Shown here one piece after another: positions 4,572 through 58,460 of a DNA stretch of 58,460 nt. The notes beneath the pieces were generated by a model, which saw nothing but the letters and a program-made list of their open reading frames with translations, was not told the origin of the DNA and did no database searches. Origin of the DNA: Escherichia phage SHIN8. Position 1 is the stretch's first letter; every line of letters starts with the position of its first letter. The translations under genes and the position numbers were made by a program. The DNA is taken from sequence record PP627280.1. One strand, written 5' to 3'.

Positions 4572-4585
4572 GTTGACATCCCGAC

Positions 4586-4618
4586 GTCCCTGATGTTAAG
4601 TTTCAACACATCAGGGAC
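4586..4618 (+). promoter_or_regulatory. perfect 11-bp hairpin between scaffold and capsid genes
   Basis: GTCCCTGATGT-11 nt-ACATCAGGGAC, no T-run; TTGACA hexamer at 4573-4578. Confidence 0.35.
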
Positions 4619-4693
4619 ACGGGTTCCTAAACAGCCTTCCACGGGGAAAGGCTACCAACAGTAAACAAATCAATCCTTTTCCTGGAGACAAGT

Positions 4694-27670: not shown

Positions 27671-27708
27671 TAAAAAGCCCATACCAGTATTATGACCGAT
27701 ATGGGCTT
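27671..27708 (-). terminator. putative intrinsic terminator between folE and HNH/dpdA
   Basis: AAGCCCATA/TATGGGCTT 9-bp stem followed by TTTTT on minus strand. Confidence 0.4.
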
Positions 27709-48733: not shown

Positions 48734-49401
48734 AAATCCTCCTAGTGAACTGGTAATGCTACTATAAAACAGCTATTAGCTATTTGCAAGAATTGTTTTA
48801 ATATAGTGCTTAGTGGCGTACATAGTGGGCAAAGCGTGTATAGTACGCCGTTACTGGCTTTGTAAAAGTTTGCCACTATAAACCACTATCCCACTATTCA
48901 CTAATTTTTTATTTTTACACAGAGCAAAGTTTATAAGTTTACGGTTTCCCCCTTATTACCCCGTTTTCAAACAAAGAATTAGTAGTAGTAGTGAAAACGT
49001 GTAAATGCCACTATCACTACTATACTATTAATTATCTGAAAAAAGTTGGGAGTATACCCCTATAAACTTATAAACTTTCAGTCAACTAACTAAAATAAAA
49101 CTAATTAAACTAATATTAATAATAACTATAAATATATATAAAATAAGGATTTATTATTATTGTATATAGTACCTATTGGTATTATGTGATGAGTTTATAG
49201 TCACTAAATAAACTCTATAAATTTTAATAAACCTGAACGGATGCAAATCAAAAACGAGAAGTCAAGTGCTTTTGAGGGAAATTTATTGAACTATTGTGAT
49301 CGGAAGGTATATCAAGCTATAATGCGCTTAATCGCGGGATATTGGAGGAGGACTTTATTGCGCGGTTAACCGGACCAGTAGGAGGGCTGGCCCGGAGTAG
49401 T
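48734..49401. repeat. AT-rich 668-bp non-coding region with repeated CTATAAA/CCACTAT motifs
   Basis: CTATAAA at ~48763, 48877, 49050, 49127, 49216 and inverted at 49194; CCACTAT x3 at 48872-48897; (TAG)4 at 48981-48992. Confidence 0.6.
48761..48789 (-). promoter_or_regulatory. candidate sigma70-type promoter (TTGCAA-17-TATAGT)
   Basis: hexamers on minus strand, -10 about 28 nt upstream of the 48733 ATG. Confidence 0.35.
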
Positions 49402-54372: not shown

Positions 54373-54843
54373 ATGGCTGACGTTAAAACTATTGTTGATG
54401 TAATGGATGAGTCCAAAGACTGCCAACTGAAGAAGTCGTTTGAAGTAAAACAGGTTACAGAGACTCAGTTAGTCTGTAATTTTGCGCGTTATTGTGGACT
54501 GGGGCGCGGGAAAGACTGGAACGGGCTTATTGTTATGCCCACATCACAGATCCTCGTTTACGTCCGCAATATTGTAGAAGATCTTTTGCGTCTTCAAATA
54601 GATATTGGTGACGTAGAAATTAACATGACCGCGAGCTCTACCATTGTGGTTAAATGGCAGTCGGGCGAGACACTGCGTTTGGAAGCGTGCCATTGTGCTA
54701 AGAGCCTACACCACCTGCGCGGTTGTCATTACCAGTTCGTTGGGTTTGTACATCCGCAAGGGTTAAGCGAGCGTACGGCGCTGGTAGCGCGTTTGCTGCT
54801 GCGTCCTTATAATAACGAGCTGGAAGTTATATACGAGGCATAA
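54373..54843 (+). CDS. hypothetical protein with Cys/His cluster
   Basis: 156 aa; CHCAKSLHHLRGCH. Confidence 0.4.
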   Translation: MADVKTIVDVMDESKDCQLKKSFEVKQVTETQLVCNFARYCGLGRGKDWNGLIVMPTSQILVYVRNIVEDLLRLQIDIGDVEINMTASSTIVVKWQSGETLRLEACHCAKSLHHLRGCHYQFVGFVHPQGLSERTALVARLLLRPYNNELEVIYEA

Positions 54844-54844
54844 A

Positions 54845-55051
54845 ATGGAAACTCCATTAGCTAAACAAATGATAGAGCGTGCGGATCGGGACGGTTTACC
54901 GGAAGACCATGCTATGCGTCGAACCGCCCAAGTGTTTGACGAGATTAGCGTTAAATATGCTATGGGTAAGAGCACCCCTAAAGCCTTATTAGGTGCTTGG
55001 GCTCGCGCTCGACGCTGCTGGTGTAACTATACCGGAGAACAGCTTATATGA
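54845..55051 (+). CDS. hypothetical protein
   Basis: 68-aa ORF. Confidence 0.35.
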   Translation: METPLAKQMIERADRDGLPEDHAMRRTAQVFDEISVKYAMGKSTPKALLGAWARARRCWCNYTGEQLI

Positions 55052-55470
55052 TCAAACACGTTAAACAGCCAACGTTGAATACATGCGTTTCCGCGTGTTT
55101 GGCAATGATCCTTAATAAACCTGTTGAGACGGTTATTAAGGAATTTCACAGTCGTTATTATAACAACTGGGAAATCACTATCAGCGAATATTTGACTAAA
55201 AACGGCGTCCAGCATCATTGTTCAGAAGGTGGTGGGCGTGAAACTTTGCATATGGGAGGTTTGTTCCTGTGCACGGTGCCAAGTCTTAATATTCCTGGCG
55301 CATTGCACCAGATTGTGATTGATATGACGGATCACAAGTTTATTGTGCATGATCCAATTAAAGGATGGGAAGGTAAAAAGTTCTATGTTGGTCCGGATCA
55401 AGATCCTGAAGAGCCTGGAGCTTTTATCATTCATACTTGGGTCAAAGACGTTGAAATCCTGCTTTATTAA
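55048..55470 (+). CDS. papain-fold cysteine peptidase (C39-like domain, putative)
   Basis: 140 aa; QPTLNTCVSACLAMIL N-terminal Cys motif and HQIVIDMTDHKFIVHDP His motif. Confidence 0.45.
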   Translation: MIKHVKQPTLNTCVSACLAMILNKPVETVIKEFHSRYYNNWEITISEYLTKNGVQHHCSEGGGRETLHMGGLFLCTVPSLNIPGALHQIVIDMTDHKFIVHDPIKGWEGKKFYVGPDQDPEEPGAFIIHTWVKDVEILLY

Positions 55471-55500
55471 TTTTCTTGCTATCACATAACCCTTCATTGT

Positions 55501-55534
55501 ATTGTGTACCCATCGAATAAGAGGGGTACACAAT
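55501..55534 (+). promoter_or_regulatory. perfect 11-bp hairpin occluding RBS/start codon of downstream membrane-protein gene
   Basis: ATTGTGTACCC-12 nt-GGGTACACAAT; 3' arm includes the first two bases of the ATG at 55533. Confidence 0.4.
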
Positions 55535-55718
55535 GACCAAACTATACGCCGGATTGTTTTTATTTGCGACGTTGATGTTCGCTGGGCTTTATACCTATAC
55601 AGTAGTCGAACAACCTTCCACGGTTATCCGAATCTTTGCAAGTACAGGGCTTTGCATCTGTCTTATTCTATTTGTTTTATGCATTGTTATTATCCAAGAC
55701 CAAAGGAAAGTTAAATGA
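55533..55718 (+). CDS. small two-helix membrane protein
   Basis: 61 aa, two hydrophobic segments. Confidence 0.45.
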   Translation: MTKLYAGLFLFATLMFAGLYTYTVVEQPSTVIRIFASTGLCICLILFVLCIVIIQDQRKVK

Positions 55719-56179
55719 CCACAATTGCGTTTGATGGAAAAGTATTAGCTGCGGACCGTGGAGTTATGCGCGGGGAAGCTGTGACTGCTTATAAGAAAGT
55801 TCATAGCGTGAATGGACATCGTGGACGGTTTTTACTGGGCTTGTGCGGTTTGACGGCATTTACCGATCAGGTGTTGCGTTATTTTAATAGCGCGGAACCT
55901 GTTAAGTTCCCTGATATTAAACTTTACAGTAAAGATGATGATTACGGGCAAACTTGCGGTCTTGCTGTCACTCCGGAAGGTACTTGCCATTTTATTTATA
56001 ATGATGGTACTTTGAGTGAGCCCATGCTGGATGGATGGGGATCTGAGGGTAGCGGTTGTGTGTTTGCTGCTGGTGCATTAGCTGCTGGTGCAAGTGCGAG
56101 CGAAGCTATTGAGCTGGCAATTAAACACACCACATGTGCATTCCTGGGAGTTGATACAATATCGTTTGAGGGTTTTTAA
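55715..56179 (+). CDS. HslV-like Ntn-hydrolase (proteasome beta-subunit-like peptidase, putative)
   Basis: 154 aa; N-terminal MTTIAF (Thr after Met), KKV, GLCGLTAFTDQVLRYF and GSEGSG segments parallel HslV. Confidence 0.5.
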   Translation: MTTIAFDGKVLAADRGVMRGEAVTAYKKVHSVNGHRGRFLLGLCGLTAFTDQVLRYFNSAEPVKFPDIKLYSKDDDYGQTCGLAVTPEGTCHFIYNDGTLSEPMLDGWGSEGSGCVFAAGALAAGASASEAIELAIKHTTCAFLGVDTISFEGF

Positions 56180-56180
56180 A

Positions 56181-56672
56181 ATGGAATGGTCTTCCATATT
56201 CACTTATTTGGATGGAAAGCTGTTCTGGAAAACTTCTAGAGGCGGTAGAGTTATACCAGGAGCACTTGCTGGTCATGCTACAAAGAGGGGTTACGTCAAA
56301 ATACGATGCGGTTGTAGTTTCTATCTAAGGCATCGCATAGTATGGGAAATGCATAATGGGTCCATTCCCGAAAATATGCAAATAGATCATATTAATCACG
56401 TTCCTGGAGATGATAGGATAGAGAATCTTAGATTAGTTACAAGTACATTAAATAATAGGAACGTAACCAGATCTAAGCTTAATAAGTCTGGTGTTACTGG
56501 TGTTTGCTATCACAAAAGAAATAAAAGATGGATAGCTTATATTAATACACAGGTCGGTCAAGTAAGACTTGGCTCTTTTATTAATTTTGAAGATGCTGTC
56601 AATGCTCGTAAAAATGCTGAGATTGTATATGAATACCACGAGAATCATGGAACTGAACGTAAGAGTTTTTGA
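56181..56672 (+). CDS. HNH homing endonuclease with AP2-like domain
   Basis: track ORF trimmed to ATG 56181; HRIVW...IDHINHVPGDDRIENLR HNH_3-type motif. Confidence 0.65.
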   Translation: MEWSSIFTYLDGKLFWKTSRGGRVIPGALAGHATKRGYVKIRCGCSFYLRHRIVWEMHNGSIPENMQIDHINHVPGDDRIENLRLVTSTLNNRNVTRSKLNKSGVTGVCYHKRNKRWIAYINTQVGQVRLGSFINFEDAVNARKNAEIVYEYHENHGTERKSF

Positions 56673-56916
56673 TGTTTTACCTTCACAATTAAACTGGAGG
56701 ATAAAAGATTTTTATAACTATGTCCAAGTGAACGATGATATTTTCTTCACTGATTGTGAGGAGGTAGCTATTGCGATTATTGATAGTCTGCAAACTAATG
56801 GCCTTGTTATCTTTTGGGATGGGGTTAACGATTACTCAGTATATTCAGAAAAGTATCTTGGCGAAGGGAACTCATTATTCGCTAAGTCCTGCGTTCTGGC
56901 ATTCCTTAATAGATAA
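56647..56916 (+). CDS. hypothetical protein
   Basis: internal ATG of track ORF 56569-56916; start uncertain. Confidence 0.3.
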   Translation: MELNVRVFDVLPSQLNWRIKDFYNYVQVNDDIFFTDCEEVAIAIIDSLQTNGLVIFWDGVNDYSVYSEKYLGEGNSLFAKSCVLAFLNR

Positions 56917-57001
56917 TCCGTCATATCCAATTCAGCTTGCTCCTCTTGATCAAAGCCTGTTAATATTATCAAGCCTAAATCAAGCGGAGGAGGCTTTATC
57001 T

Positions 57002-57439
57002 ATGGCACTTCAACCTCGTGGTATTCGTAATAACAATCCAGGCAATATTCGCTGGGGTGATAATTGGCAGGGCTTAGTTCCTGCTGATAAGCGAACCGAT
57101 AAATCTTTTGCTCAATTCACGCAACCGATTTACGGCATTCGTGCGCTAGCGAAAATCCTGACAAACTACACCAAACGTGAAGGCTTGCCCAATGTGGGTA
57201 AGAAAAACATCGACACTGTACGTGAAATTATCGCTCGCTGGGCACCGCCTAACGAAAACGATACGGAAGCGTATATTCGCTCTGTTGCCAAAGCAATTGG
57301 TGTTCAACCTAACGATCCAATTAATGTCTTCGACAAGGCAATTATGTCAGGATTGGTGAAAGCAATCATTCGTCATGAAAATGGCATGATGCCCTATACC
57401 GATGACGTAATTAACCGCGCTATTGCAATGGTACTTTAA
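57002..57439 (+). CDS. endolysin (putative peptidoglycan hydrolase)
   Basis: track ORF trimmed to ATG 57002 with GGAGGAGG RBS; conserved GIRNNNPGNIRW segment; directly upstream of holin and spanins. Confidence 0.5.
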   Translation: MALQPRGIRNNNPGNIRWGDNWQGLVPADKRTDKSFAQFTQPIYGIRALAKILTNYTKREGLPNVGKKNIDTVREIIARWAPPNENDTEAYIRSVAKAIGVQPNDPINVFDKAIMSGLVKAIIRHENGMMPYTDDVINRAIAMVL

Positions 57440-57443
57440 CTGA

Positions 57444-57466
57444 CGGGGCGTTAGCCCCTTTTATTT
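57444..57466 (+). terminator. putative intrinsic terminator between endolysin and holin
   Basis: GGGGC-gtta-GCCCC followed by TTTTATTT. Confidence 0.4.
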
Positions 57467-57475
57467 GGAGGGAAC

Positions 57476-57820
57476 ATGTTCAATTCACCCAACGAACATT
57501 GGGCAGTTCTAGCGGGGTTTGCGTTTATCTCCCTCATTGGGGGAGCTCTCGGTTATGTCATGCGTACAATAGACGCTGGTAAGAAAGTACGGGCAAGTAT
57601 TGCGTTTCTTGAAGGCTTATCCGCCGCTTTCTTTGGCGTTATAATGTATGCGATCTACAGGGAGTTTAACATCAGCCTTTGGTTCGCTTTTGGCCTTGCT
57701 GGCCTATTTGCTTGGGCAGGTTCACGTGCTACGCTAAAAGCCCTAACGTCGCTTATAGCTTCACGGACAGGGATCAAACTCGATTCAGGGGACTGCAAAC
57801 ATGAAAACGATTCTAAATAA
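57476..57820 (+). CDS. holin
   Basis: 114 aa, three hydrophobic helices, charged C-terminus; GGAGGG RBS. Confidence 0.55.
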   Translation: MFNSPNEHWAVLAGFAFISLIGGALGYVMRTIDAGKKVRASIAFLEGLSAAFFGVIMYAIYREFNISLWFAFGLAGLFAWAGSRATLKALTSLIASRTGIKLDSGDCKHENDSK

Positions 57821-58277
57821 CTTCTTCGGTTTTATAAAAACTAAACCGCGTCTGTTTATCGAGTATTTGATGATCGGCGCGGTTGTGTTTTTATGCGGGG
57901 TGGCTGCATACTTGTGGTCACAGAACGAGCTCAGCAAAACTAATTTAAATCATGCTGAGCAAAGACTAACCGTTGTAGAACGGGACAATGCAAAGCTGGG
58001 CGAAGCTGTTGTATTTCTTGCATCCCAACGGGAGAAGGATACTGAATCCTATCGAAAATTGGCTTCAGCAATTGAAAGTGAGCAACATAACCACAGGTTG
58101 CTTCAGGACAAATTAAAAGCACTGGAGAAAAGCAATGCCGACGTCAAAGCTTATCTTAATGAGCGTGTTCCTGATGATTTGCGCAGGCTGCTCGACGGAG
58201 ATACAACCTCCACCACCGCCGCAGATAGTGAAGATAAAACTTCCGGCCCATCTGTTGGTAGAATGTCGGGAAGTTGA
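57801..58277 (+). CDS. i-spanin (Rz-like)
   Basis: 158 aa; N-terminal transmembrane helix then coiled-coil periplasmic domain. Confidence 0.55.
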   Translation: MKTILNNFFGFIKTKPRLFIEYLMIGAVVFLCGVAAYLWSQNELSKTNLNHAEQRLTVVERDNAKLGEAVVFLASQREKDTESYRKLASAIESEQHNHRLLQDKLKALEKSNADVKAYLNERVPDDLRRLLDGDTTSTTAADSEDKTSGPSVGRMSGS

Positions 58278-58440
58278 TAAATATCCTTTGGTTTATACAA
58301 GGGATATTATCCAACGTTTGCAGGATACAGAAACAGCTCTGACTGAATGTAAACTGAGGGTTAAGGAAATCATACGCTATGAAGCTGAAAATGTTTCGCT
58401 TGATTTTGTAGGATCAAGCAATTATATTCAGCCTAAATAG
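58135..58440 (+). CDS. o-spanin (Rz1-like lipoprotein) overlapping i-spanin in +1 frame
   Basis: 101 aa; signal peptide with Cys at LMICAGC, PPPPP run; starts inside Rz. Confidence 0.55.
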   Translation: MPTSKLILMSVFLMICAGCSTEIQPPPPPQIVKIKLPAHLLVECREVDKYPLVYTRDIIQRLQDTETALTECKLRVKEIIRYEAENVSLDFVGSSNYIQPK

Positions 58441-58460
58441 CAATAAGAAAGGGGGCTTCC

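Follow-up and report, generated by a model that had tools for sequence, protein, structure and literature searches.

A conserved hairpin buries the ribosome-binding site of a small open reading frame upstream of an HslV-like gene in Seuratvirus phages

Introduction

Near the lysis genes of an Escherichia coli phage, a perfect inverted repeat lies directly over the start of a 61-codon open reading frame (ORF). The question that this locus raises is whether the repeat acts as an RNA hairpin that controls translation of the ORF, whether it serves as a DNA site or as an element of mRNA processing, or whether it has a selected function at all.

The stretch of DNA analysed here, which is 58.5 kb long and is referred to throughout as the window, is an almost complete genome of a CAjan/Seurat-like Seuratvirus (Queuovirinae). 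Seuratviruses are siphophages of E. coli whose DNA carries a 7-deazaguanine modification. Structural genes occupy the plus strand from 1 to 20.8 kb, replication and modification genes the minus strand from 20.8 to 51.6 kb, and a second plus-strand block, from 51.8 to 58.4 kb, holds many small genes followed by those for the endolysin, holin and spanins. The hairpin lies in this last block, at a locus that is 97-99% identical to those of SLUR76, CAjan, Seurat, slur01 and several BASEL phages. A literature search returned no paper on Seuratvirus transcription, and the lysis-suppression genes described for CSP1 were set aside, as they belong to the tail-fibre region and not to the hairpin locus.

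Results

Gene context of the hairpin

The features of the locus, with the evidence for each in parentheses, are as follows.

55048 to 55470, plus strand: upstream gene of 140 amino acids, phrog_4049, possibly a C39-like cysteine peptidase (ORF list, PHROG match)
55471 to 55499, plus strand: 5' flank, unstructured and pyrimidine-rich (alignments; unpaired in the MFE structure)
55500 to 55511, plus strand: 5' arm, consisting of the wobble base U55500 and ATTGTGTACCC (repeat finder, fold, alignments)
55512 to 55523, plus strand: 12-nt loop, ATCGAATAAGAG, carrying the 5' part of the Shine-Dalgarno (SD) sequence (fold, alignments)
55519 to 55524, plus strand: SD sequence AAGAGG, with the core GAGG at 55521-55524, 8 nt before the AUG (sequence)
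55524 to 55535, plus strand: 3' arm, GGGTACACAAT plus G55535, comprising the SD-AUG spacer and the start codon (sequence, fold)
55533 to 55718, plus strand: small ORF of 61 codons, two-helix membrane protein, phrog_22841 (ORF list, PHROG)
55715 to 56179, plus strand: HslV-family peptidase-like gene (PHROG match, E 5e-32)

The preliminary description had placed the small ORF between two peptidase genes. This holds for the downstream gene, for which the match to the HslV family is strong, and is doubtful for the upstream one, whose only peptidase signal is a sub-threshold match to Pfam Peptidase_C39 (E 0.05, 13.8 bits against a cut-off of 22) that spans residues 3-24 of the 140-residue protein, at its N-terminal Cys motif. 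The stop codon of the upstream gene is located 30 nt 5' of the base of the stem. At its other end, the small ORF is joined to the HslV-like gene by the sequence ATGA, in which the stop codon of the former overlaps the ATG of the latter, an overlap that is kept in the phages STP-SP5 and yong3; the HslV-like gene also has an SD-like sequence of its own, AAGGA, inside the small ORF. The genes upstream of the hairpin are co-directional with it, and the terminator scan predicted no strong terminator-like site between 52831 and 57445. A search of 5.8 billion proteins for the 61-residue product of the small ORF returned only two near-identical clusters.

Two endonuclease genes were seen in the vicinity of the HslV-like gene, one in a relative and one in the window. 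In SeppeHuegi (L234 666-1136), the ATGA junction is the exact insertion point of a homing-endonuclease gene, which has captured the ATG that starts the HslV-like gene; the frame of the latter (TTIAFDG...) is left without an in-frame start, an internal Met being annotated instead. The N-terminal Thr is the expected catalytic residue of HslV-type proteases, and loss of the ATG would remove it; judged from its sequence, the HslV-like peptidase may be dispensable or inactive in this phage. The other, an HNH endonuclease gene of the window (56088-56672; Pfam HNH_3, E 2e-19), is present in only some relatives (SLUR76, SLUR26, SA126VB and slur01); counted from its first start codon, it overlaps the HslV-like gene at the 3' end of the latter.

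The Shine-Dalgarno sequence and the start codon are enclosed in a stable stem

The repeat finder listed a perfect 11-bp inverted repeat, with ATTGTGTACCC at 55501-55511 and GGGTACACAAT at 55524-55534, as had been described, and the ATG at 55533-55535 enters the 3' arm with its first two bases. In RNA, the helix is extended by a wobble pair between U55500 and G55535 and by two inner pairs, U55513-A55522 and C55514-G55521. The resulting helix of 12+2 bp leaves the GAGG core largely paired and the AUG paired at all three of its bases, so that the earlier placement of the SD sequence in or next to the loop, and of the first bases of the ATG in the 3' arm, is borne out and extended to the entire start codon. 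The position of the SD sequence agrees with the GenBank record of Seurat, in which a ribosome_binding_site is annotated at the equivalent of 55519-55524.

The hairpin has an MFE of -20.1 kcal/mol in a 66-nt context (z = -4.3; none of 200 shuffled sequences folded equally well) and of -19.3 kcal/mol in isolation. The 11 Watson-Crick pairs of the stem form with a probability of 0.89-1.0 in folds of 100, 350 and 700 nt, and the mean pair probability of the stem is 0.96 at 42 °C and still 0.92 at 60 °C. No other sequence nearby was found that could pair with either arm. A run of T residues following the hairpin is absent on both strands, as the preliminary description had noted; on the plus strand, the sequence directly 3' of the stem is GACCAAACTATACG, and the terminator scan made no call at the hairpin. 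The 5' flank contains a weak sigma-70-like -35 sequence, TTGCTA, at 55476-55481.

Several familiar types of RNA element were considered and rejected. RNA thermometers of the ROSE and fourU types sequester the SD sequence in an imperfect helix that is weak enough to open between 30 and 42 °C. Neither such a thermometer nor a two-state switch fits a stem that is perfect, is mostly formed at 60 °C and lacks an alternative partner. The usual substrates of RNase III comprise approximately two helical turns, as in the R sites of T7, and the stem, with 12 pairs plus two inner ones, falls below that length. Searching the region 54500-58460 with the covariance models of Rfam 15 gave no match at E values up to 1.

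The stem is invariant among relatives and the loop is not

The locus is carried by approximately 48 genomes (36 GenBank phages, three IMG/VR contigs and nine metagenomic contigs), and among them the 22 bases of the stem show not a single substitution. All differences within the hairpin are confined to the loop, which is 11 or 12 nt long and also differs in sequence between genomes. The loop of the Salmonella phage STP-SP5 has one substitution, that of VogelGryff has one substitution and a 1-nt deletion, and that of the Hafnia phage yong3 has several substitutions and a 1-nt deletion other than the one in VogelGryff, indicating that two deletions occurred independently. In STP-SP5, the stem is unchanged between flanking genes that are approximately 75-85% identical to those of the window (in 30-nt windows). 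The 5' flank (55471-55499) is also nearly invariant in the E. coli and Salmonella relatives, and in yong3 only CTTCAnTGT (55491-55499) is retained of it. These alignments clearly point to purifying selection on the stem relative to the loop.

The stem shows no covariation because it never varies, and for the same reason selection for pairing is inseparable from selection for sequence. Other hairpins in the same genomes have acquired wobble changes at the same divergence, so that this stem is more conserved than pairing requires; something sequence-specific might, thus, read the hairpin. Most of the carriers share more than 90% identity overall, so that the genomes are not independent. Intermediate orthologs were sought in IMG/VR and in metagenomes with the HslV-like gene as anchor, and the relatives recovered were either at least 98% or less than 40% identical, with nothing between; the distant HslV loci contained neither the small ORF nor the hairpin.

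In yong3, the hairpin covers an unrelated ORF

The most informative relative is yong3, in which the DNA on either side of the hairpin cannot be aligned with the window and the stem is nevertheless unchanged. The gene immediately upstream (L002 1707-2081) encodes an inserted protein of 124 residues with a C-terminal helix-turn-helix (HTH), located between the C39-like gene and the hairpin, and its stop codon lies only 5 nt before the stem; no homolog of this protein is encoded in the window. The ORF downstream (L002 2124-2309) again has 61 codons and is unrelated to that of the window (DNA alignment z approximately 1). Its maximum hydropathy over 19 residues is 0.7, as compared with 3.0 for the membrane protein of the window, and its product is thus a non-membrane protein. 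The cassette swap has preserved the length of the ORF and both of its junctions, namely CTTCAnTGT and the hairpin at the 5' end, and AAGGA...AATGA, which comprises the SD sequence of the HslV-like gene and the stop codon that overlaps its start, at the 3' end.

The AUG of yong3 is shifted 2 nt downstream, and the stem has gained T-A, G-U, U-G and A-U pairs, with the result that a stem of 15 bp (-19.6 kcal/mol) still covers the start codon. The probability that four consecutive extra pairs arise by chance is approximately 0.02. Two of the four are G-U pairs, which form only in RNA, and this is the sole RNA-specific evidence for pairing. The retention of the hairpin over an unrelated ORF indicates that it belongs to a position in the operon and not to the membrane protein, and the tie to a membrane-protein gene that had been proposed for the window does not hold. 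What is maintained is the burial of the initiation region.

Such repeats are seldom expected by chance, and the start is among the most costly to open

In 200 first-order Markov simulations, the expected number of perfect inverted repeats (11 bp or longer, loops of 3-20 nt) was 0.21 per genome, and four were observed. The core GTACCC-N-GGGTAC occurs once, against an expectation of 0.04, and the palindrome of the hairpin is unique in the genome. For the close relative KurtStettler, the energy needed to open the region from -15 to +3 was determined at its 94 curated gene starts, which have a median of 5.6 and a standard deviation of 3.6 kcal/mol. At 16.8 kcal/mol, the start of the small ORF ranks third of the 94 annotated starts, approximately 11 kcal/mol above the genome median.

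A repeated operator family was also sought and rejected, as the 92 viral contigs containing GTGTACCC-N6-18-GGGTACAC carry unrelated hairpins, with the exception of three identical Seuratvirus contigs. One unrelated viral contig (L062 2735-4565 and L064; IMGVR_UViG_3300030106_005739) has at least six hairpins of the form GTGTACCCC-loop-GGGGTACAC followed by GTAA, in copies approximately 300-670 nt apart; this is an intergenic stem-loop family of a different phage that has only an 8-mer in common with the hairpin studied here.

The endolysin leader and other hairpins of the genome

The highest opening cost of the 94 genes of KurtStettler, 23.8 kcal/mol, is that of the endolysin gene. In the window, the endolysin leader (56934-56995; endolysin ATG at 57002) pairs AGCUUGCUCCUCUUGAU with AUCAAGCGGAGGAGGCU and thereby buries the SD sequence GGAGGAGG, with a free energy of -23.6 kcal/mol. 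The 5' arm used in the window is a different one from that of the relatives, and the window's leader also differs from the leader found in relatives lacking the HNH gene at 56088-56672. Relatives without the leader variant of the window form a stem of 26 pairs at -34 kcal/mol (z -5 to -6), in which both the SD sequence and the AUG are covered; the leaders examined were L003 2212-2278, L001 2696-2762 and, in yong3, L002 3055-3124. The stem reaches -34 kcal/mol in ECP2304 and STP-SP5 and -22 kcal/mol in yong3, where five one-sided changes have occurred and all pairs are kept by wobble. No promoter could be recognised inside the endolysin leader. By analogy, it looks like a siphovirus counterpart of the leader of T4 gene e.

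Motifs that the hairpin might share with other leaders were examined and rejected. Both ACCCTTCAnTG and CTTCATTGTATTGTG, which were considered as a shared motif or late promoter, recur no more often than by chance, and a likeness of 14-15 of 21 positions to the endolysin leader of the relatives is equalled by about a dozen random sites in the genome.

Further structured or non-coding regions were seen elsewhere in the genome. The leader between the scaffold-like and major-capsid genes contains a perfect 11-bp hairpin (4586-4596 paired with 4608-4618) with an 11-nt loop and no T-run, which overlaps a conserved sigma-70-like promoter sequence (TTGACA at 4573-4578, TG at 4594-4595 and TAAGTT at 4597-4602) and is followed by a second invariant hairpin at 4633-4653. 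The first of these stems has two wobble-preserving changes in STP-SP5 and is largely lost in yong3, in which the promoter-like boxes are kept; the record of SA126VB calls this hairpin a rho-independent terminator. On the minus strand, a terminator-like hairpin with a T-run (27675-27708) contains the annotated start of a small gene, bas22_0039 in KurtStettler, which has the second-highest opening cost (19.4 kcal/mol). Either this start is mis-annotated or it is another occluded start. Finally, the segment from 48877 to 49401 is a 525-bp AT-rich non-coding region in which several short sequences are directly repeated (tagtgatagtgg..., tttataagtttatag...) and the minus strand has strong sigma-70-like boxes, and its sequence makes it a candidate for an early-promoter cluster or a replication origin.

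Discussion

A cis-acting attenuator of translation

The hairpin is a real and well-conserved structure that buries a ribosome-binding site (RBS), and it is of a kind already familiar among phage control elements. Our preferred interpretation, to which we give modest confidence, is that it functions as a cis-acting RNA attenuator that occludes the initiation region of the small ORF and throttles its translation. This model starts from the structure of the hairpin, its stability, its register with the SD sequence and the AUG, its conservation and its retention over a different ORF. From these we infer that translation is lowered and that the lowering may be the function under selection. The hairpin would form in a polycistronic plus-strand mRNA that covers the small genes upstream and continues in the direction of the lysis genes. 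The SD sequence, spacer and AUG, being paired in a 12+2-bp helix of approximately -20 kcal/mol, would keep 30S initiation off the small ORF, the translation of which would then fall far below the level usual for genes of this phage. From the excess opening cost of approximately 11 kcal/mol, and with thermodynamic initiation models in general use, we estimate that the reduction could be about two orders of magnitude. Because the small ORF ends in the ATGA overlap, the HslV-like gene is probably also throttled in part through this junction, despite having its own SD sequence.

The presence nearby of a second RBS-burying hairpin, that of the endolysin leader, supports the attenuator model. Against it stands the conserved flank CTTCAnTGT, which has no obvious pairing role in the window. 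We found no mechanism that would relieve the block, and the strength of the block leaves the expression of the ORF puzzling.

Comparison with known control elements

Inhibitory leader hairpins have been described for the T4 genes e (lysozyme), soc, 49 and I-TevI and for mobE of Aeh1 (PMC3014915). In the T4 scheme, long early transcripts carry the inhibitory helix, and transcripts from a late promoter, which lack the 5' arm, are translated (PMC3014915). The element described here resembles those of e, soc, 49 and I-TevI in that a stable local helix covers the SD sequence and AUG of a gene that lies downstream of co-directional earlier genes, in or near a lysis/late region, in the conservation of the structure among related phages, and in the occurrence of a second instance, on the endolysin gene of the same phage. 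It differs in that Seuratvirus is a siphovirus that uses the host RNA polymerase, that the 5' arm has no late promoter of the type TATAAATA and only a weak sigma-70-like match, and that the ORF under the hairpin is an exchangeable cassette of 61 codons, coupled to the HslV-like gene. By analogy, we class the element as a hairpin of the T4 e/soc/49/I-TevI type, and regard its membership in the regulated T4 scheme, which a late promoter in the 5' arm defines, as no more than possible.

The operator of the MS2 and Q-beta replicase genes is a hairpin bound by the coat protein; in MS2, its loop and a bulged A are the conserved determinants, and its stem may covary. The Seuratvirus hairpin likewise contains the initiation region of a gene; unlike the operator of MS2, it has a variable loop and an invariant stem. 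As a perfect, G+C-containing stem-loop shortly after a stop codon, it also resembles rho-independent terminators and stabiliser hairpins, from which it differs in having no U-tract, in not being called by the terminator scan and in being held in register with the downstream SD sequence and AUG and not with the upstream stop codon. The record of SA126VB annotates terminators (WebGeSTer/TransTermHP) and has only CDS features over the hairpin locus. The initial view of the hairpin as a translational control element and not a terminator is, thus, the better fit to the burial of the RBS, the conservation and the renewed burial in yong3, tempered by a stem that shows no covariation.

Alternative explanations

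One could envision a temporal gate of the T4 gene e type, in which the hairpin blocks only long read-through transcripts and a later promoter with its -10 sequence in the 5' arm (TTGCTA-N18-TATTGT, 55476-55505; predicted start at approximately 55512, in the loop) gives rise to transcripts that lack this arm and are translated. A 5' arm serving both as promoter and as pairing partner would explain the invariance of the two arms, and the scheme is documented in T4 (PMC3014915). It would also suit the co-directional upstream genes and the lack of a strong predicted terminator-like site among them; furthermore, the E. coli and Salmonella relatives show no change in either the -35-like or the -10-like hexamer, their variable positions lying upstream of -35 or in the spacer, and the capsid-leader hairpin (4586-4618) likewise overlaps a conserved promoter-like sequence, TTGACA-N18-TAAGTT. 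We think that this explanation is unlikely, as the promoter matches at only 8 of 12 positions, has a spacer of 18 nt and was missed by the promoter scan, which itself finds no more sites than in shuffled sequence. The -35 sequence is not kept in yong3, which has TAGCCT instead, the distribution of variable positions falls short of significance (P approximately 0.16 by our own estimate), and there is neither a motif common to other leaders nor a late promoter of the T4 type. The weak promoter-like sequence also bears on the proposal that ATTGTGTACCC-N12-GGGTACACAAT is a DNA operator, bound in double-stranded form by a dimeric phage or host regulator of the transcription of the HslV-like and lysis genes. 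Like the operators of dimeric repressors, the element consists of two invariant 11-bp inverted half-sites around a spacer of variable sequence; its stem varies less than do structural hairpins at other places in these genomes, the palindrome overlaps the promoter-like sequence, and in yong3 an HTH protein gene lies immediately upstream. Rigid dimers are usually intolerant of changes in spacer length. The spacer here is mostly 12 nt and is 11 nt in VogelGryff and yong3 through different deletions, the palindrome is a single site in the genome and absent from other phage contexts, the HTH protein of yong3 has no homolog encoded in the window that could be its cognate regulator, the extra pairs of yong3 include what would be G-T mismatches in DNA, and no convincing promoter is present to be controlled. 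An operator is, in our judgment, still less likely than the temporal gate.

A third proposal is that the hairpin serves mRNA processing or stability, as a barrier that shields the upstream message from 3' exonucleases, a protective 5' hairpin after cleavage by RNase E in the AU-rich flank or a site for RNase III, with the burial of the RBS being incidental. A perfect intercistronic hairpin without a T-run, 30 nt past a stop codon and preceded by a single-stranded AU/pyrimidine-rich flank, is what such an element might look like, and the hairpin of the capsid leader, which has the same geometry and likewise no T-run, adds to the resemblance. A pure stability element, however, would need neither the exact register with the SD sequence and AUG nor its restoration in yong3 after the AUG had moved; in addition, the helix is short for RNase III, and the upstream stop codon of yong3 lies only 5 nt before the stem. 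We rate this proposal no higher than the operator. It might, finally, be argued that the hairpin has no selected function and is a chance palindrome or a recombination joint kept by recent shared ancestry, given that most of the carriers are closely related overall and that cassette swaps and homing-endonuclease insertions surround it. The low number of such repeats expected per genome, with far fewer expected over an RBS, and the persistence of the stem between diverged flanks in STP-SP5 and unalignable ones in yong3, while the loop changed, make this very improbable.

Implications for Seuratvirus biology

Beyond the attenuator itself, we tentatively propose, as a speculation that we consider rather doubtful, that Seuratviruses run a temporal translation gate resembling that of T4 gene e at two lysis-proximal points, one being the module made up of the small ORF with its HslV-like neighbour and the other the endolysin gene, with release by a mechanism new to the group. 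Release might occur through an internal start site in the 5' arm, through RNase cleavage of the stems or through a sequence-specific phage factor. Either such a factor or an overlapping promoter would account for the invariance of the 22 stem bases and of CTTCAnTGT even where both flanking genes have been replaced.

For engineering of these phages or expression from the locus, the hairpin would matter as a compact, portable and very tight clamp on an RBS. If the proposed control is correct, the E. coli phages of this often-isolated group, among them CAjan, Seurat and several BASEL phages, would limit or time their HslV-like protease module by translation and not by transcription. The hairpin and the endolysin leader, which is much the stronger of the two, together suggest that these siphoviruses have an independent counterpart of the classical guard of T4 against premature lysis.
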